Shown here one piece after another: positions 1,544 to 56,023 of a stretch of DNA of 56,023 nucleotides. The DNA lies in IMG/VR virus record IMGVR_UViG_3300037310_000607, positions 1 through 56,023 of that record, one strand, 5' to 3'. Within the stretch, counting starts at the first letter, position 1; each line of letters opens with the position of its first letter. The notes under the pieces are model-generated. The model was not told where the DNA came from. It was given only the letters and a program-made list of their open reading frames with translations, and searched no databases. A program made the translations under genes and the position numbers. The DNA is from a virus (Duplodnaviria > Caudoviricetes).

Positions 1544-3673
1544 TTAGTTCACGATCTGCATGGTAATCCCAGACGGGTTATTTTCGGAAGGGTTGCTGTC
1601 GCCGTCGGTCACGTCGATCTGGATCGTGGACTCGTAGACGTTCGCTTCGACTTGCGTCCAGTCGAAGATGTACTCGGTGTCAGGCGAGGCGATCGTGTCG
1701 GTCACGACGGGGAAGCCGGTGGGGTTGCCGGTCTCGGAAACGATCGCGCTCACCACGTCGAAGTCGTAGACGAGTGGCGTGAGGGGCGAGACGACGACCT
1801 TCACCTGTCGGTCCAGATCCCCGCCTGGTGCGAATCCGACCTCGATGGTGAACTCTCCGGTCAGCGGGTCTGCCTCGACCTCGGTCCAATCGACGGCGAC
1901 CAGGAGCTTGTGGTAGAGGCGCAGCTCGAATCCCTGACGAACCTGGATCAGTGGCCGGAAAGCCGGGCCTGGCTTGTAGAGCCCGCCGTAGCCGCGATAC
2001 TTCATCCCGATCGGGGCGACGGCCTGGATCTCCAGCGTCATGCCGCGGCCAGAGACCTTCTCCGGCGTGAAGAAGTGGACGCTCTTCGCGGCCCAGGTCC
2101 CGAGGAACTGGTCGCCGCCGAGCGTGACCAGCTCCTCCTTCTCCGACGCCACGACAGGCGCCGTCCAGAAGTAGACGCCGTTGTCCGGCCTGATCTGGCG
2201 CCAGGCATCCTCGTCCCCGCCGAGCAGGTACAGCGTCCAAGCGTTCAGCTCCGACTCGACGTAGGCCCAGAGGTTCGTGATCGTCTTGCCGCCCTCGATG
2301 TCGTCGCCGGGATCGAAGAAGAGCGCGTGGCCGTGACGGATCACCAGGCGCTTCTGCACCGTGTCGCCGTCGTCGTCCCCATCGGCCTCGTCGTGGCGCC
2401 GGATCTTCCCGTCGCACGAGCCCACGAGGAGATTGCCGTCCTCGTCGAAGAGGATCGAGCTGTCACGCCGGCCCTTCAGATCGAGAGACCAGTCCGGCTG
2501 ATCGTTCGTCCCGCCCATCGTCCGCTCGAACAGCTCGTAGGATCCGACGTAGTCCACGGTGCCTACGTCGGCGATCCCCTCGAAGAGCTGCGCCGGATCG
2601 CGTGGCGTCTTGAAGACGTAGACCTTGTTCACGATGTCGTCGGCGGCGAAGCCCTGGGAGAATGCACCCTTGTTCGCGAGGTAGTCGTCGCGCCAGTAGG
2701 GGCGCATGTCCTTCATCGCGTAGTAGAAGGACCCGTCGTAGAGCCAGACGCCGTCCTCGGCCGGGAACCAGAGCTTGTTGTGGATCTCGACGATCCCCCA
2801 GTGCGACACGCACCCCACGCTCGAATCGAGGCGCTGGAGCACCCAGTCGTCATCCACGTTGTTCTGGTCGAAGGCGCGCACCAGGAGCGTCGAGCGCCGG
2901 CAAAAGACGATCAGCTCGTTCTTGCCCTTCGCGATCCCAGTGATCGCAGCCCGGTCGGGCGTGTCGCGATAGGACAGCTCACCGACGTACTGCGGATTGC
3001 CGGGCTCGCTCGCCCAGAGCCGGTAGGGGTGCTCGGTCGTTCGCGCGTACCAGCCGCGGCCCGCGAACTCGACGCCGAAGTAGAGGCCAGACGGCGGCTG
3101 CCCGTGATCGACCGGCCCGACGTCCAGCAGATAGGTGAGGCGCGTGTTCTCGAAGAAGCTCGTGATGCCGTAGGGCGCTTCCCATGCCATGCGGTAGTCG
3201 CTGCCGTTCATCGAGCGGTAGCCGCGCACGTGCGTCACGCGCATATCTGCGCCCTCGTCCTGGATGTTGCTCCAGACGAAGCCCTGCCCCGTGATCCCTT
3301 CGAGCGTCACGTAGTTCGACGGGTCGCTCTCGGCGAGAATCAGATCTCCCTGCTTGTGCAGGAAGGTCGTGTACATGACGGCGTTGCCCTCGTCGCCGCC
3401 GCTGCCGCTCCCGAGTGCGACCGTGAGCCGTTTCGTCGGCGCCTTGATGCCGGCGACCAGGTAGCGCTGGTCCTGCTTCGGCCGATAGACGACCTTCGAG
3501 TAGCACCCGACCAGGTAGGTGTCGCCGCGGAAGGTGAAGATCGAGGGCCGCCGGCCGGTCGAGATCACGCCCTGCGCGCTCCAGTAGTCGGCGGCGAACG
3601 TGGCGCCTGGACCGAGGATGTCGGTCAGCCACTTGTTGCCGACGCGGCGCGAAAGTGTGAAACCGAGAGCCAT
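1544..3673 (-). CDS. tail nozzle/stabilisation protein (tail tubular B / P22 gp10-like), C-terminal portion
   Basis: beta-propeller-like motifs RLWASEPGNP, ITGIAKGKNELIVF, GCVSHWGIVE, GVWLYDG; synteny. Confidence 0.65.
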   Translation of the reverse strand: MALGFTLSRRVGNKWLTDILGPGATFAADYWSAQGVISTGRRPSIFTFRGDTYLVGCYSKVVYRPKQDQRYLVAGIKAPTKRLTVALGSGSGGDEGNAVMYTTFLHKQGDLILAESDPSNYVTLEGITGQGFVWSNIQDEGADMRVTHVRGYRSMNGSDYRMAWEAPYGITSFFENTRLTYLLDVGPVDHGQPPSGLYFGVEFAGRGWYARTTEHPYRLWASEPGNPQYVGELSYRDTPDRAAITGIAKGKNELIVFCRRSTLLVRAFDQNNVDDDWVLQRLDSSVGCVSHWGIVEIHNKLWFPAEDGVWLYDGSFYYAMKDMRPYWRDDYLANKGAFSQGFAADDIVNKVYVFKTPRDPAQLFEGIADVGTVDYVGSYELFERTMGGTNDQPDWSLDLKGRRDSSILFDEDGNLLVGSCDGKIRRHDEADGDDDGDTVQKRLVIRHGHALFFDPGDDIEGGKTITNLWAYVESELNAWTLYLLGGDEDAWRQIRPDNGVYFWTAPVVASEKEELVTLGGDQFLGTWAAKSVHFFTPEKVSGRGMTLEIQAVAPIGMKYRGYGGLYKPGPAFRPLIQVRQGFELRLYHKLLVAVDWTEVEADPLTGEFTIEVGFAPGGDLDRQVKVVVSPLTPLVYDFDVVSAIVSETGNPTGFPVVTDTIASPDTEYIFDWTQVEANVYESTIQIDVTDGDSNPSENNPSGITMQIVN

Positions 3674-23055: not shown

Positions 23056-23434
23056 GTTCCCTCCTTGCCGCCTCACGATCCTCGTTCTGGATCTTGCACA
23101 AGAACTCGGCGTAGCGATCCGGGTCGGCCACGTAGTCGCTGCACCGGATGTTGGTCCCACGTATCACGGCGTTCTCTTCACCGCCTGTTGACTTCCCCTC
23201 GCCGCGCGCGTAGCGCAGGATCGTAGCGATCGTCGGGAAGCGCTCCTCCGACTTCAGGATCTCCTGGGTCGCGCGTTCGAGCTGGTAGTCGGTGACGCCA
23301 GCCCGGTCGAGCGTGCGGTGGTAGATCACCGTCATGTCCAGGGAGATCTTCCGGTGCAGGGCGGAGGCGAGCAGATGCAGGGCGGAGGCGACCGCCGCCT
23401 CGCTCAGCGCGTCCGGCGTCTCGAACGGCATCAC
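23021..23434 (-). CDS. helicase loader/inhibitor-like protein (lambda P / SPP1 G39P type)
   Basis: directly after initiator; RFPTIATI motif. Confidence 0.55.
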   Translation of the reverse strand: MMPFETPDALSEAAVASALHLLASALHRKISLDMTVIYHRTLDRAGVTDYQLERATQEILKSEERFPTIATILRYARGEGKSTGGEENAVIRGTNIRCSDYVADPDRYAEFLCKIQNEDREAARREREQRQAVPHQR

Positions 23435-24249
23435 GGCTTCCCGCTCGGGAGCTGGCGCTGCGCCGTCCCGCTCTTGAGGAACTGCTGGAGCACGCGCTTG
23501 TTCCCGGTCTCGACCGTCTTCGCGCTGCCCTCCGCGCCGCCCTCGTAGACCGAGCCGTCAGCCCACGCTCCGAACTTCGCGGCGAAGTCCTGGGGGCTCG
23601 CGTAGGTGGGGTCCTTCTCGTCGAGGTAGCGGCGCCAGATCGGCCGCACCTTCTCCCACGTGTGCGCCTCGACCAGCTTCGTGAGCGCGGCGCCGATCCT
23701 CCCGGGCTGAGCTGACCCCTTCCCGAAGCGCTCGTCCCAGTCGGTCGCCGCCTCGCGTGGCCAGGACTGCTTCCGCCTCGGTGGATCGAACGGCAGTCCC
23801 GGCCCCGCCGCGTCAGCGGCGGACTCGATCACCTCCTGGGGGGGTAGGGGGGGTTCTCTGTCTCTGCCTCTGCCTCTGTCTCTGTCTCTGTCTCTGGCTA
23901 GCATCCTGCTAGCGTCTGCTAGCGGCTTGCTAGCAAGCTCTTCTTGAGTCAGCGTGAGGCCGATCAGCTTTGAGGCGTCAAGTATCCTAAGTAGCTGAAT
24001 GATATCGACTTGGAAGTCAAGCCTCATCCTCCAGCGAAGCTCCTCGCAACTTGTCTCAACAACTCCTTTCCCTTCAACGACTTCGTTCTCTGACGCCATG
24101 AGCCACAGGAAGATCAGCATCACCTGGGCCTGCGCGTCGAGGATGATGAAGTCGTAGTTCTCGAAGACCTTACGGTGGATCTTGATCCAGGGCGGCCGCC
24201 GCTGGCGGTAGTGCTGGTAGTCCGAGAAGTTCGGGATCAGGATCTTCAT
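23431..24249 (-). CDS. phage replication initiator (replisome organiser)
   Basis: N-terminal NFSDYQHYRQRRPPWIKIH; central iteron/low-complexity linker; helical C-terminal domain. Confidence 0.75.
   Translation of the reverse strand: MKILIPNFSDYQHYRQRRPPWIKIHRKVFENYDFIILDAQAQVMLIFLWLMASENEVVEGKGVVETSCEELRWRMRLDFQVDIIQLLRILDASKLIGLTLTQEELASKPLADASRMLARDRDRDRGRGRDREPPLPPQEVIESAADAAGPGLPFDPPRRKQSWPREAATDWDERFGKGSAQPGRIGAALTKLVEAHTWEKVRPIWRRYLDEKDPTYASPQDFAAKFGAWADGSVYEGGAEGSAKTVETGNKRVLQQFLKSGTAQRQLPSGKP
23856..23934. repeat. putative replication origin: (AGAGRC)n tract plus four GCTAGC repeats
   Basis: GCTAGC at 23897, 23908, 23918, 23929 inside the initiator gene, a lambda-ori-like placement. 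Confidence 0.65.
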
Positions 24250-24288
24250 GGCCTCGCTCGCGCTCCGCTTGCCTCGTGCTCGTGGGAT

Positions 24289-24326
24289 GCTTGCGACTGC
24301 TAGCAACGCGCTAGCATCTTGCTAGC
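24289..24326. repeat. phased GCTAGC repeats upstream of initiator
   Basis: GCTAGC at 24299, 24310, 24321. Confidence 0.65.
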
Positions 24327-52500: not shown

Positions 52501-55500
52501 CAGAGAGCGGCGGGATCGGCCCCTTGATCTCCGGCTGACCCTTCTTCCGGCCCTTCACGTAGGCGTCCACGTTCACCGGCTGGCCCTTACCGGACTCGAA
52601 GTCGGCGCGCGCCTTGGCGACGGCCGCCTCTGCGTCGGCCACGAACTTCTCGTAGGCCGGCGTTCCCTCCGGCGGGACGTCGTCGAGCCCGAGCTTCTTC
52701 GCGGCCGCCTTCGAGACTCCGCCGAGGGCCTCGTAGCCGGCCCCGGTCTCGGCTTGCTCGCCGAAGGCCTTCGCGTTGCGCTCGGCGGCGTCGATCTGGC
52801 GCCGGAGCGCCGTCCAGGCGCGGAGCGGGTCCTGCCCGTAGATCTGGAGCGCCTGCTCGGTCGCGCTCATCCCGATCCCGCCACCTGCCTCACGGGCCGG
52901 CTGACGGGCCGCCGCGGCGCCGCTCAGCGGCCGCAACGGCTTCAGCTCTCCTGGGTGCGCCCAGCCCTTCTCGCCCGGCAGCTTCACGAAGCCCTCGGGG
53001 TGCTCGGCCGTGCCGGGCACGAACTCGCCGGTGAGCGTCTTGTGGAGGCGCTGCGCGGTCGCCGGCTCCAGCTTGAGCGTGCCGTCGTCTGGCACCTTGA
53101 TCGTGAGCGCGCCCTCCTTCTCGACGTCGAACTTCTTCGCGATCTGGTCTGCGACCGACTCGGCCTGCTTCTTCGTGAAGGCCGGGGCCTCGGGCGGCAC
53201 GCGCGTTGTGCGCCCACGCGGGGGCAGCTTCGCCTTCGCCGCGGGAATCACCCCTTCGGTCGTCATGGTCGGGTGGTGACGCTCGACGACGGTGTTCGTA
53301 GACGTGATCCCGAAGGGCTGCGTCTCGCCGGGCTTGAAGGCGTAGAGCGTCGGGAGCGGATCGTCCGTCGCGCGCCACTCCAGTTCCGGCACCGTCCCGC
53401 GCTTTCCCTTCGCGGTGCGCGTGGCCTCGGACATGATGTGTCCGACCTGCTCGGCGGCGCTCGCGACGATGCGGCCGTCCTGGAGCTTGATCCAGACGAC
53501 GTCCCGCTTCTTGCCATAGCCGCCCTCGAAGGCCGTCCCCTTGCTCCAGCCGACGATCGTGGCGGGCGCAGCCTTCTCGGCCGCCGTGAAGATCTGGCTC
53601 GCCTGCGGGTGGTCGAGCTGGGATGGCGGGACCTTGGGCGTCGCGCCGCGGACGAGCACGGTCCCGTCGCCCCAGTAGTTGCTGCCCTCGGGCGAGGACA
53701 GCTCGACCATGCGCGTCCCGTACCGTCCCCCGAAGCTCTTCGGGGCACGCGGCTTCGGCACGAAGCTCACCATCGGCTCCGCGCGCACACCCGTCTTGCC
53801 CTCCGGGACCTCGCCTACCTCAGCCGCGACTTCGGCTGGACGTGTCGGGGCTGGACGCGGGACCTCCGGCGCGGGCTCGATCTTCGGCGCCGCAGCCTTC
53901 GCCGCGCGAGGCGCGCGTGCAACGCGAGCCGGCTTCGGTGGTGCGACTGCCGCCTTGCCCTCGGTCGTCAGGCGATAGTCGGCCTGGTTCCGGTTGAACT
54001 TGACGAGGCCGTCAACTTCCAGCGAGCGGATCACCTTCCGCGCCGTGGGCGCGTCGAGGCCCTCCTGCTGGAGCATGTCGCTCGTCACGCGGCCGGCGTT
54101 CTCGCGAGCGACACGAAGGGCGAGCGCCTGGTTGTCAGGCGTCGCCTGCGGCTCCGCTACGCCGGGCTCTGGCCTCGCTTCCGGTTGACGTTCAGGCGCT
54201 CGACCAGCTCCTTCGCTTGGCGTTCGGCCCGCGCCGCGCCCGCCCGGGACTCCTCCTCGGACGTCAGCGGTCCCGACCAGCTCTCCCAGGGCGGCGCCAC
54301 GTAGGACTCGTCCGACGTCATCCGGCCTGTCGGCGTGCTCGGCGGCCCATTCTGATGCGGCCTTTCGGATGGCACTGCTCACCTCCTCCGGCTTGTATTC
54401 TAGCCCACGTAGGAACGAAACGCCAGCGGTATCGTTGAAAGTGCCGCCGCCGACGAGTACGGCCTTGGCCCCAGCGTTGTCTACCACGTGGACCGTGACG
54501 TCCGTTGGCCTGATCTTGCCTGCCTCGATGCCTTCGCCGAGCCACTCCCGGATCTTCAGATTCACCTGGGGAATCGTCGGGTAGGCCTGGGCGAAGTACG
54601 GTGCCTGGACCGCTCGTCCCTTGCCGAGCGCCCGATCGAGCGTCCGCTTGAAGTTCGGGCCGGGCTCGCCGCCGTGGATGTAGATGATGTCTGCGCGGCC
54701 GCCGGACTGGAGCGTCTGCGCGACCAGATCACGCGGCTTCGAGGCATCGACAGTGCCGTCTGGGTTGAACTTGCCGGCCATCGTCCCATCGAAGATGGCG
54801 AACGCCTTATCGACGAGGTGCGGCACCTGGCGCGAGGCCGTGGTCTTGCCGGATCCGGGAGCGCCGGCCATGAAGAGAACGCCCTTCGCCTTGTCGTCCG
54901 GCACCTTGCCGTCGCGGATTGCCGCGAGAGTCCTCTGGAATGCCTGCTTCACGATCCACGACGACGCCTCGTGGACGGCCGGCGCGTTCGCCGATCGCGT
55001 CTGGAGCGTCTCGGCGTACTCCGGGAACAGCTCCCGCGCCTCGTCGGCGTTCAGCTCGATCGTGCCGTTCTTCGAGTTGCGGCGGATGTACTCCTGGACG
55101 TACCACTCCGGGTCCGCTTCGACGCGCCGGTTGACCTCGGCCTGGATCTTCGACTGCGCCGGTGTGAGCCCAGCGTCGGCCGCGGCGCCTGCTCCATCTG
55201 GCAGTACGGGCAGCTTCGAGATCGCGCCTTCCGGCAGTGAGCCGGCGCGCGACTCGTGCGTCCACGTCTCCTCGGAGCGTGCGGTTCTCGGTTCGAGGGG
55301 AGCGTCAGGCGAGACTTCGAGGACCGGGCGCGGATCGTAGAACTGCTTCGTCGTCGGGTCCTGCTTGATGAGCCCCCGATCGACGGCTTCGCGGATCGCC
55401 GCGTTCGCTCCGCCCTCGCCGAGCTGATCGACGAGGCGCTCGCGGAGCGTCTCCAGCGTCATGAGCCTCGGCGCTTCGCCCTTCTTCGGAACCTCCGGGC

Positions 55501-56023
55501 GGTGCGGGCCGGCAGCGCGCACCGTGTCCAGGACCGTCTGCGCGGCCTCGCCGAGAGCCGCCTCAGTCGCCGGCCCACGGCGGGCCGGGTACTCGAAGGC
55601 GTATGGTTCGCCGGTCGCCGTGCGCCGCGGCTTGGCCGGCTCAGCCGGCGGCGGTGGGGCGGGCGCTGCCTCCTGGGCTTCGAGCGCGGCTGTGCGCTCC
55701 TGGACAGTCTGCTCCGTCGGGCGCATCGGACGGATGGGGACACCTTCGGCTCGGCCGAGCCTGTCGGGAGTTGGCACCGGCTCACGTGCCGCGACCATCG
55801 CAGCATCCAGGTCCGGCTCGCGGCCGGCGCGCTCGGCAGCGATGGCCTGCTGGACCGCGGCCTTCATGAACTTCTCGCCCGCGATGAAGCCGCGGTCGGG
55901 CTTGCTCCAGCGCAGGATGCCCGCGCGCGTGAGGCCCTGGAGCATGAGCCCGGCCTCGCGCGTCGAGACGCCCAGGCCCTCGGCGACGTCCTTGGCCTGG
56001 ACGCGCCCGTTCGCTTCCAGCAT
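49523..56023 (-). CDS. giant internal virion / polyvalent protein with zeta-toxin-like kinase and winged-helix domains (5' end probably truncated)
   Basis: 2166 aa; GAPGSGKT P-loop; C-terminal LFVPFISTP, ARLEP, KSYLDG motifs of ejected internal virion proteins. Confidence 0.75.
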   Translation of the reverse strand: MLEANGRVQAKDVAEGLGVSTREAGLMLQGLTRAGILRWSKPDRGFIAGEKFMKAAVQQAIAAERAGREPDLDAAMVAAREPVPTPDRLGRAEGVPIRPMRPTEQTVQERTAALEAQEAAPAPPPPAEPAKPRRTATGEPYAFEYPARRGPATEAALGEAAQTVLDTVRAAGPHRPEVPKKGEAPRLMTLETLRERLVDQLGEGGANAAIREAVDRGLIKQDPTTKQFYDPRPVLEVSPDAPLEPRTARSEETWTHESRAGSLPEGAISKLPVLPDGAGAAADAGLTPAQSKIQAEVNRRVEADPEWYVQEYIRRNSKNGTIELNADEARELFPEYAETLQTRSANAPAVHEASSWIVKQAFQRTLAAIRDGKVPDDKAKGVLFMAGAPGSGKTTASRQVPHLVDKAFAIFDGTMAGKFNPDGTVDASKPRDLVAQTLQSGGRADIIYIHGGEPGPNFKRTLDRALGKGRAVQAPYFAQAYPTIPQVNLKIREWLGEGIEAGKIRPTDVTVHVVDNAGAKAVLVGGGTFNDTAGVSFLRGLEYKPEEVSSAIRKAASEWAAEHADRPDDVGRVLRGAALGELVGTADVRGGVPGGRGAGRTPSEGAGRAPERQPEARPEPGVAEPQATPDNQALALRVARENAGRVTSDMLQQEGLDAPTARKVIRSLEVDGLVKFNRNQADYRLTTEGKAAVAPPKPARVARAPRAAKAAAPKIEPAPEVPRPAPTRPAEVAAEVGEVPEGKTGVRAEPMVSFVPKPRAPKSFGGRYGTRMVELSSPEGSNYWGDGTVLVRGATPKVPPSQLDHPQASQIFTAAEKAAPATIVGWSKGTAFEGGYGKKRDVVWIKLQDGRIVASAAEQVGHIMSEATRTAKGKRGTVPELEWRATDDPLPTLYAFKPGETQPFGITSTNTVVERHHPTMTTEGVIPAAKAKLPPRGRTTRVPPEAPAFTKKQAESVADQIAKKFDVEKEGALTIKVPDDGTLKLEPATAQRLHKTLTGEFVPGTAEHPEGFVKLPGEKGWAHPGELKPLRPLSGAAAARQPAREAGGGIGMSATEQALQIYGQDPLRAWTALRRQIDAAERNAKAFGEQAETGAGYEALGGVSKAAAKKLGLDDVPPEGTPAYEKFVADAEAAVAKARADFESGKGQPVNVDAYVKGRKKGQPEIKGPIPPLSGRFVLVNEKGVPVDTIAGKPLNTRGDAERAAEAYQGIRKEKVSVVDRRASEAGAVSVELLAAPILLPAKLVGSMVTMGARLLKSGLTSFGPWAREMASRLGGLLEGGTKSLRHLWEWSRNLFGGGGEPPPGGGRTPPPGEPPVAPPLGGEGPAPRRTPPPYGIRDVVEPTRGEARAAAAEAATRQGPLRPETPAGTDFPINTTRLGGPTELRETQQRLADAFKGTLNQNREYRSWEEARHNWLKSGRTEADFKRVVREQGVVDDATIEGGRALMNDAAERFQSARSRMEEARKAGDDIGAEAAEREMISHALNWGAITAHRVAASAEVARALNIHKKLSAGLTPEERMFQQIVQSNLRRNLSPKLLDELSRAVLEKDHAKMQKLGREILKPSFLDKVNEWFINNILSAPPTWGANVAGNWGHEVLLRTPERGLSGLIEAALARGQGRAPERLPGEAFEALKGQWKHGFGAKHFTQVLRDTLSENPFDPTMMAVKGEYRPPALPGTFGKVWRTPGRLLRALDKAARSAAYEAEVFAETYRDGFNAGRAKGLQGKELRDFINQNGQQLGTQMAEWRRIDLQRQLAGDASLSAAERAILNDPKLSGMGERAAEAAKQSTFQDQVGAFTGAALHLRATHPWLTLFVPFISTPSRILSQAMARTPLGLARAAKRAYTGETRGGAAADELARGLWGSMIGASLYGLAQSGFITGSGPTDPDEQRAWQRTGKQPYAVKVGDNWVSMARLEPMATILGLAADLSEAKDAKKAGDVADKLVATLTNNVMSKSYLDGVASLVEAVQDPERYGSTYAKKMIGAMAVPNLLATAARAIDPTIRDTSQMELPGGLGYIVPPIMARVPGLSQQLPSRLSGTGEPVQREEGPFSRFFSPFRYTKEKGSEADLERAFLRAGYIPSAPTREITIPGTYGRKATLTRQEREIYGAYNARATAQARRLAASLEFENLQPEHQEYVLKSLYRMAHDAARKAVLRSVASRLRA
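54157..54375 (-). CDS. nested out-of-frame small protein (candidate antitoxin/immunity protein)
   Basis: GGAGGAGGTG RBS, upstream TAGAAT, GC3-rich codons in the nested frame. Confidence 0.6.
   Translation of the reverse strand: MPSERPHQNGPPSTPTGRMTSDESYVAPPWESWSGPLTSEEESRAGAARAERQAKELVERLNVNRKRGQSPA
54397..54425 (-). promoter_or_regulatory. internal promoter with operator copy driving the nested ORF
   Basis: TGGCGT-N17-TAGAAT; 11/16 operator at 54401-54416. Confidence 0.55.

Follow-up and report, generated by a model that had tools for sequence, protein, structure and literature searches.

In the streptococcal epsilon/zeta and PezA/PezT systems, the genes of the epsilon and PezA antitoxins lie upstream of the toxin gene. 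Same-strand nested genes are known from comS, inside srfAB of Bacillus subtilis, and from Rz1, inside Rz of phage lambda, and EzeT of E. coli is said to combine a cis-acting antitoxin domain and a zeta toxin in one polypeptide. The epsilon and PezA antitoxins are three-helix bundles (PMC5923241). The ng_epsilon1/ng_zeta1 pair of Neisseria gonorrhoeae conjugative plasmids (PDB codes 6EPG, 6EPH, and 6EPI) is presented in passages of Rocker et al. (2018; PMC5923241) as a subtype in which two sequence blocks of the toxin are swapped relative to streptococcal zeta toxins. According to the same passages, ng_zeta1 phosphorylates activated sugars carrying uridine diphosphate (UDP) and causes lysis, and its antitoxin is not a three-helix bundle but a small, non-globular, extended polypeptide with helices over the ATP site. 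The polyvalent proteins of phages and conjugative elements also include a zeta-toxin-like kinase among their domains, which, according to a proposal in passages of Iyer et al. (2017; PMC5512222), serves to weaken the wall of the cell as the DNA enters. Here, a kinase of this kind was analysed in a provirus record of IMG/VR (IMGVR_UViG_3300037310_000607, Caudoviricetes), the whole of which, 56,023 bases with a G+C (GC) content of ~68%, is referred to as the window. Its giant virion gene P0001 (49523–56023, minus strand; 2166 codons in the list of open reading frames (ORFs) and their translations) contains the kinase domain, and a small ORF of 72 codons in frame +1 (54157–54375, minus strand) lies across the end of that domain. 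We consider it highly probable that this nested ORF is a real, expressed gene of a small-ORF family that accompanies such kinases.

The kinase domain of P0001 (residues 286–577; 54293–55168, minus strand) was delimited with the profile of the kinase alignment A3. P0001 matched Pfam PF06414 (Zeta_toxin) with an E value of 7.5e-10 and 39 bits (cut-off, 22.3), and the A3 profile matched the Zeta_1 toxin chains 6EPH_B and 6EPG_B with an E value of 4.1e-22 over positions 6–260 of 265. Residues D43, R46, G103, G106, G108, K109, D128, and R180 were invariant in the kinase alignments A1 and A3, and they would have a catalytic role to judge from PMC5923241 and from enzymes of this type in general. The Walker A sequence GxxGxGK[ST], an Asp about 19 residues further on, and a D-x-x-R-x-x-x-P-x-Y block N-terminal to the P-loop formed the pattern of the Zeta_1 subtype. 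The phage domain and the toxin in the passages of Rocker et al. were of the same 'rewired' type, with this block before the P-loop in both. By these matches, the kinase is a homologue of the Zeta_1 (Neisseria ng_zeta1-type) toxin.

The setting of the kinase differed from that of the gonococcal toxin, which serves plasmid maintenance, whereas the phage kinase was part of a virion protein. P0001 was composed of winged helix-turn-helix (wHTH)-like modules, the zeta-like kinase, a linker, and a C-terminal internal-virion-protein part. Residues ~1493–2109 matched 'internal virion protein D' genes in 41 phage records by tblastn (22–33% identity; best E value, 3e-23), and the C-terminal third matched phrog_6651 (internal virion protein) with an E value of 3.4e-23. 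The C-terminal part resembles the T7-type internal virion protein D (gp16-like), and by this resemblance P0001 would be present in the virion and ejected from it. Like the polyvalent proteins in the passages of Iyer et al., P0001 was a giant multidomain protein, with a zeta-like kinase and an internal virion protein in one chain of 2166 residues, presumably delivered with the DNA. The polyvalent-protein domains PF18760, PF18763, and PF18834 were carried by its distant homologues P0003, P0004, and P0006. The giant protein is of the ordinary polyvalent or internal-virion-protein kind. The passages on zeta, antitoxin, and immunity in PMC5512222 name no partner or overlapping gene for the kinase.

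The nested ORF started at GTG 54375 and ended at TAG 54157–54159. A Shine–Dalgarno (SD)-like sequence, GGAGGAGGTG (54380–54389, minus strand), placed its GGAGG 6 nt 5' of the GTG and gave the start signal GGAGGAGG-N6-GTG. An internal ATG at 54321 would give 54 codons; the GTG and the ATG were 89 and 35 nt upstream of the kinase profile end, respectively. The nested peptide ended in ...SEEESRAGAARAERQAKELVERLNVNRKRGQSPA. AlphaFold2, run on the alignment of the small proteins (A4), predicted a C-terminal helix at residues 39–67 (54175–54261, minus strand) with the family motif ...AKELVERLNVNRK. The mean predicted local distance difference test (pLDDT) values were 90, 97, and 88 for residues 41–50, 51–60, and 61–70, and the first 38 residues were of low confidence. 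The nested protein is predicted to consist of a disordered N-terminus and one helix.

Close relatives of the window were found neither by blastn of positions 53500–55500 against phages nor by single-protein locus scans of viral and genome contigs, and the 72-residue nested protein gave no match by tblastn against phages. Protein searches with the window kinase returned only kinases of 29–34% identity. Because the window sequences had no close relatives, kinase-domain profiles (A1 and A3) were used, which gave 13 viral and 34 metagenome loci with 25–40% identity to the window kinase and a GC content of 33–69%. Each locus was anchored at the end of the kinase profile, and the set comprised 48 loci counting the window. 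Six were excluded for an incomplete domain end (L006, L021, L033, L041, L043, and L046) and two because they lay too close to the end of the available DNA (L032 and L039). The 40 loci that were examined included 35 distinct ones.

A frame +1 ORF of at least 48 codons, starting ~41–125 nt before the domain end, was present at 34 of the 35 distinct loci; control anchors placed within these genes predicted 9.25. The same search in frame +2 gave 2 of 35. Below 50% GC, the frame +1 ORF was present at 13 of 14 loci, compared with 1.84 expected. No such ORF was found at L040. The frame +1 ORF of L031, which was counted among the 34, was unlike the others, and this locus carried a family-like ORF in frame +2 (~3145–3350), a placement that could be genuine or due to a contig indel. 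At 25 of the 35 loci the kinase frame stopped within 36 nt of the domain end, and the small ORF was a separate downstream gene that overlapped the kinase gene by 17–70 nt. At the other ten (the window, L002, L003, L013, L017, L019, L024, L036, L037, and L038) the kinase frame read on into further sequence, and the small ORF was wholly or almost wholly nested in the fused gene. The downstream context varied, with terminase genes in L005, L007, and L014 and giant fusions elsewhere. In phages, the small gene appears always to sit, in frame +1, where the coding region of a Zeta_1-type kinase domain ends, with its own SD sequence and its start in the last ~20–30 codons of the domain.

The start codon was mostly ATG, and nearly all loci had one 41–68 nt ahead of the domain end. 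In 24 of 33 distinct relatives, a candidate start was preceded at 4–16 nt by an SD core, compared with 0.10 per control position, and L002, L005, and L014 had the arrangement AAGGAG-N7-8-ATG. In the part outside the overlap, 21 pairs of stand-alone loci, which were not independent of each other, differed 207, 165, and 373 times at codon positions 1, 2, and 3 over 663 codon pairs. This substitution pattern is, in the aligned loci, that of a protein under purifying selection. The original prediction had placed an out-of-frame gene right after the zeta-like domain, and such a gene was indeed tied to the domain, with the same frame, place, start, and SD sequence in relatives of 33–70% GC and with coding-type substitutions. 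It is this conservation of the ORF and its ribosome-binding site among homologues, not the arguments of the original prediction itself, that supports the nested gene; the 72-codon ORF, its GTG, its ribosome-binding site, and the letters TGGCGT-N17-TAGAAT that it had reported were all present in the window.

The small proteins, of 48–80 residues, were basic to neutral and combined a disordered N-terminus rich in Lys, Arg, Ser, Thr, and Pro with one conserved amphipathic helix ending in ...L-N-x-x-x-K/R. Part of the N-terminal stretch arose from the frame +1 translation of the codons for the kinase motif I-S/T-E-x-I-Y-R-G. The peptides were alignable (A4), with final helices such as IADELINALNSKTKNL, IASAMVSNLNSRTKT, and MIQNLKRNVPE, and AKELVERLNVNRKRG in the window. 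Gene callers had recorded 17 family proteins, of 38–65 residues, as hypothetical proteins without Pfam domains. None of the 31 aligned family members matched PHROG, and none was significant against Pfam, where the best E value was 0.011, to unrelated families. The A4 family profile matched no PDB chain and hit no antitoxin chain at E values up to 10, and an ESM Atlas look-up of one family member gave no usable match. The literature on zeta toxins with overlapping genes, phages, and internal virion proteins (main texts in open journals) yielded no description of the small gene. With neither a PHROG match nor a significant Pfam match in its aligned members, the family appears to be one that is unnamed before this work. 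The only GenBank phage record with the kinase, MW202577.1 (L049), where it is annotated as 'thymidylate kinase', contained an unannotated member of 40 codons (3234–3356) overlapping the 3' end of the kinase gene.

Membership of the window ORF in the family was examined with two profiles. A family profile built without the window placed the window ORF at rank 2 of 982 six-frame segments, with an E value of 0.079 and 9.3 bits and with residues 40–70 aligned on the family helix; rank 1 was a low-complexity match. A second, tails-only profile drew on 22 stand-alone small ORFs, each reduced to the stretch after the kinase stop, and was thereby free of the imprint of the kinase frame. Among 1840 six-frame segments, the nested ORFs of L019, L024, L013, L003, L038, and L002 and that of the window took ranks 1–7. 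The small ORF of L049 was the top match of this profile in its test set, with an E value of 0.0011. Although its profile match is weak alone, the window ORF in all likelihood belongs to the family, given its position in the same frame and at the same place and its strong SD sequence.

The codon usage of the fused loci followed a recurrent pattern. In every one of the six high-GC fused loci, the GC content at third codon positions (GC3) of the main frame collapsed inside the nested ORF: to 0.61 in the window (0.88 in the whole frame), 0.42 in L002 (0.85), 0.36 in L003 (0.83), 0.53 in L013 (0.80), 0.40 in L017 (0.89), and 0.53 in L024 (0.77). Nested-frame GC3 across these six loci was 0.80–0.88. 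Directly after the nested stop, main-frame GC3 was 0.84–0.92 in five of the six and 0.48 in L024. The third position of a nested codon is the first position of a main-frame codon, and a GC-rich nested GC3 therefore forces main-frame codons that start with G or C, which encode Gly, Ala, Arg, Pro, Glu, Val, and Asp. In the window, the main frame reads through the nested gene as a Gly/Arg/Pro/Glu/Ala 'linker' (residues ~578–625; 54149–54292, minus strand). The reading of the host frame as a linker in the original prediction was borne out and can be sharpened, as the Gly/Ala/Arg/Pro/Glu linker of the high-GC fused relatives looks like a shadow of the GC3 of the nested gene.

Taken by itself, the codon usage of the window set the nested ORF apart from chance only in part. 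The log-likelihood of codon usage in frame +1 gained ~40 bits over the main frame at ~54331–54163, and no other internal stretch of a confident window gene showed such a switch; the other outliers in the window were ORF ends, probably called too long. Main-frame GC3 was 0.57–0.61 within the nested region, compared with 0.88 for the whole gene, and was 0.88 again right after the nested stop. Nested-frame GC3 in this analysis was 0.93, and codon resamplings of the main-frame protein all gave 0.88–0.93, because the main-frame amino-acid composition fixes it. Of the codon-usage argument of the original prediction, the switch of ~40 bits was real, whereas the high nested GC3 followed from the composition of the main frame; given the main-frame protein, the nested codon score was z 2.7. 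The conditional test behind this score is now judged overly strict, since the nested gene has itself shaped the main-frame 'protein' on which the test is conditioned. The exceptional feature was the poor codon usage of the main frame, with z values of −5 to −6.

Several observations weighed against the nested ORF as a gene of this family. Its GTG, 89 nt before the domain end, was away from the usual start place. With the tails-only profile it was the best of the 982 segments of the window at only 4.0 bits (P 3.4e-3), which is weak alone, and the same profile performed poorly for three of the ten fused loci (L036 at rank 17, L037 at rank 25, and L017 at rank 58). BLASTP of the window ORF gave no alignment with its counterpart at L015, the locus with the most closely related kinase, and phmmer gave no match for the 72-residue protein among 1.84 billion representatives. 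The branch of the window kinase itself was very long, and its identity to the L015 kinase was 30%. A comparison of L002 with L003 inside the overlap gave no clear periodicity in either frame (0.33/0.39/0.31). Within the window, frame +1 was open for at least 72 codons at 34% of control anchors in the same gene, so that the length of the nested ORF was unremarkable. Conditional on the main-frame protein, the nested codon score of z 2.7 was in the top ~2% of 731 windows, and at least 15 of these reached that value or more, so that the score was not unique. The poor main-frame codons also extended upstream of the nested ORF by ~120–250 nt, to ~54493–54620. Finally, a standard sigma-70 scan of 53900–54800 gave no sites, and no promoter was found.

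The last result also bore on the internal promoter, the copy of the phage operator, and the early control that had been proposed for the nested gene, none of which was supported. The letters TGGCGT-N17-TAGAAT (54397–54425, minus strand) were present and their status as a promoter was not supported; TGGCGT had two of six bases in common with TTGACA. No second copy of the 19–20-mers covering the hexamer pair was present in the window at up to three mismatches, and ten shared 10-mers were found, compared with ~7 expected. Shared 9–10-mers were near chance, so that no 'operator copy' was found. One 10-mer, TCCTACGTGG, occurred twice in the gene, at 54297–54306 and 54405–54414 (minus strand), 108 nt apart. 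Each copy encoded Leu-Arg-Gly with the rare codons CTA CGT (within FLRG and VLRG). This 10-mer was not enriched window-wide, with four matches compared with 2.2 expected.

The codon anomaly upstream of the nested ORF (54376–54620, minus strand) coincided with a GC content down to 0.61–0.64, and no other frame there was open or coding-like. The nested gene cannot explain it; it could be a mosaic patch or a cluster of rare codons at the end of the kinase domain. An antisense gene was rejected as the cause of the codon anomaly, as none of the plus-strand frames there was coding-like.

When the pair of kinase and small protein was compared with the described systems, it shared with epsilon/zeta and PezA/PezT a zeta-family P-loop kinase and the small helical partner proposed here. 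The PezAT arrangement of an antitoxin gene directly upstream in a two-gene operon was not found, since the kinase was internal to a gene of 2166 codons and the candidate partner overlapped the 3' end of the kinase region. Unlike epsilon and PezA, the nested protein had one predicted helix and no Pfam match, and its gene was downstream and out of frame. The pair is not a strict member of the epsilon/zeta family. The predicted disordered stretch and single helix would be compatible with the extended mode of the ng_epsilon1 antitoxin in the passages of Rocker et al. (2018). However, the gonococcal pair forms a bicistronic operon according to the same source, whereas the phage candidate partner overlapped the kinase end in another frame, and the small-ORF family had no sequence similarity to any PDB chain.

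The arrangement resembled comS/srfAB and Rz1/Rz in that a larger gene wholly enclosed a small one that had its own start and was read from the same strand in a different frame. In contrast to these, the nesting in the phage appears secondary, as the small gene was mostly a separate, partly overlapping downstream gene in the relatives. The likeness to EzeT was that of a toxin and an antidote within the span of one gene; EzeT reportedly holds both in one frame and one chain, whereas the phage locus would give two chains from two frames.

These comparisons led to the following proposal. The kinase frame would have been welded to downstream domains, in the window to a wHTH module and the T7-gp16-like internal virion protein, and would since read through the small gene as a linker. 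Ribosomes would start internally at GTG 54375, and the small protein would be made alongside the giant ejection protein. Its helix would bind the kinase domain and keep the kinase inactive, or otherwise escort it, in the producing cell. The kinase would then be packaged and ejected into the next host without the small protein, where it would phosphorylate UDP-sugar precursors of the cell wall. Functional coupling of the small gene to the kinase is likely from the conserved gene arrangement. An antitoxin role for the nested protein, which the original prediction had suggested from the neutralisation of zeta and PezT kinases by small helical antitoxins, is plausible by analogy. That the small protein is specifically an inhibitor, antitoxin-like or immunity-like, which would bind the kinase and block it, is a tentative reading that falls somewhat short of even chances. 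Two findings weighed against it: the small protein had no similarity to epsilon, PezA, or ng_epsilon1 (31 members against Pfam; A4 against PDB), and its gene was downstream of the toxin domain, the opposite of the epsilon/PezA order. Read loosely, as a real gene acting on the kinase, the whole proposal is evenly poised between right and wrong.

An unlikely yet substantial alternative is that the small protein is real and does something other than inhibit, as a packaging escort or adaptor, as an activator or specificity factor of the kinase, or in an unrelated job while travelling with the kinase gene. The strict linkage to the kinase shows coupling and not the direction of the effect, and largely disordered proteins of basic to neutral charge suit many roles. 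The missing similarity to known antitoxins and the partner-after-toxin order, unlike that of epsilon/zeta loci, fit this alternative as well. However, the kinase domain was the only constant neighbour of the small gene across contexts as different as terminase genes and giant fusions. An unrelated function is unlikely for this reason, which does not distinguish an escort from an inhibitor. A small disordered protein that has a single conserved helix, would share its messenger RNA (mRNA) with the kinase, and is never found apart from it fits an inhibitor that would protect the producing cell until packaging of the kinase, and an escort about equally.

It is improbable that the window ORF is a fossil, left over and still open from a formerly separate gene downstream, which was overprinted at the fusion and is no longer translated. 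In the kinase tree the fused state needed five changes, at least two of them forced by well-supported branches, so that fusion occurred more than once and some fusions may be young. At 70% GC, chance alone leaves frame +1 open over 72 codons in roughly one case in three, and the displaced start and the weak match of the window to the family profile would suit a remnant. Nevertheless, the window retained a strong SD sequence and a GTG, and the family helix motif was retained in seven of the ten fused loci, including L019 and L038 at 42–44% GC. The main-frame GC3 deficit was unrelaxed in all high-GC fused loci, and L002 and L003 had the fused layout and the nested ORF in common at ~47% identity (counted by eye).

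A programmed +1 frameshift, which would yield a kinase with a helical tail ending at TAG 54157 and so a shorter free kinase beside the giant protein, with a small ORF that does not start on its own, is very improbable. An SD-like sequence is known to stimulate +1 slippage in prfB. The overlap of 17–70 nt together with the SD-like sequence in the kinase frame could act in the same way, and the constant overlap would be explained. Yet nearly all loci had kept the start codon at its place ahead of the domain end, with the initiation-type spacing of 6–8 nt from the SD sequence, no slippery or stop-codon shift site was seen in the overlap of the window, and gene callers found the small proteins as separate genes.

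It is scarcely credible that the ORF is due to chance or artefact, whether as a frame that happens to be open in GC-rich DNA, as a side effect of the linker composition, or through sequencing errors or compensating frameshifts. In favour of this reading are the insignificant ORF length, a nested GC3 set by the main-frame composition, and an evidently genuine main frame with RVLRG and a Gly/Pro/Arg-rich linker common to distant homologues. Against it stand the recurrence of the ORF at 34 of 35 distinct loci, with GC contents as low as 33%, the ranking by the tails-only profile, the coding-type substitutions, and identical independent contigs without indels.

The integrity of the DNA was examined separately. 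Independently assembled contigs of two sequencing runs, from samples that may both be the source of the record itself, showed no differences and no gaps over 53000–56023 at depths of 26 and 12, and since both were identical to the window, a sequencing error is unlikely. The conserved end of the kinase domain, RVLRG (54296–54310, minus strand), is dual-coded with the nested frame. It aligned with TVLRG, TVARG, AVFRG, and TIYRR of the homologues P0003–P0005 and P0008 and with ISExIYRG of the viral loci, and the distant homologues had a Gly/Pro/Arg/Glu-rich linker after the conserved TVxRG motif, as in the window. The main frame of the window is genuine, because RVLRG and this type of linker were common to distant homologues. 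A sequencing error or a compensated double frameshift was rejected on the basis of the identical contigs together with these shared features. Also discarded was a model in which a single indel had joined two genes, the second of them beginning near 54160, as frame 0 had no ATG, GTG, or TTG at ~54330–54088; frame 0 was coding-like from 54157 on.

Beyond the phage loci, four plasmid Zeta_1-like genes, of Pandoraea (L050), sphingomonads (L051 and L052), and Moraxella bovis (L053), had a frame +1 ORF of 66–87 codons at the kinase end, even at 40% GC. These ORFs had a common motif, R-Q/R-E/K-V-A-x-R, and gave no match to the phage tails profile. Possibly they form another nested family, unrelated to that of the phages, or else merely reflect the main frame.

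Three similar winged-helix-like modules were noted by eye in P0001, at residues ~1–57, 165–235, and 625–690 (56023–55850, ~55530–55320, and ~54150–53950, minus strand), where MLEANGRVQAKDVAEGLGVS... resembled ARENAGRVTSDMLQQEGLDA...; the sole formal wHTH match was a weak one to Pfam TrmB at residues 4–37 (E value, 0.052). A protein identical over all 2166 residues was present on a record from a 59.9-kb contig, and the contigs of both runs (14.4-kb records) extended several kilobases past base 56023 of the window. Because these contigs go further, the provirus record was seemingly cut exactly at the ATG of the giant gene. A major head protein gene was present elsewhere in the window. The ORF at 23431–24306 (minus strand) had by far the least typical use of synonymous codons of all ORFs in the window, with z down to −10.8; either the gene was acquired recently or its frame was called wrongly.

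In its full form, the proposal is that phages which inject a zeta-toxin kinase carry its antidote in a gene that overlaps the kinase-domain end out of frame, and that this gene survives nested within fusions and dictates the composition of the 'linker'; this general form is rather doubtful. With such an overlap, toxin and inhibitor would be inseparable by recombination and made from one mRNA. The locus offers a clear case in which the 'linker' of a giant protein may be the shadow of a gene in another frame, and it illustrates that genes of this kind escape gene calling and domain annotation wherever the upstream frame continues across them. The small protein is a testable candidate for how a phage could make a cell-wall-poisoning kinase late without harming the producer cell. 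If the proposal is true, it would represent a new toxin–immunity architecture, namely, producer-cell immunity for a virion-delivered effector.

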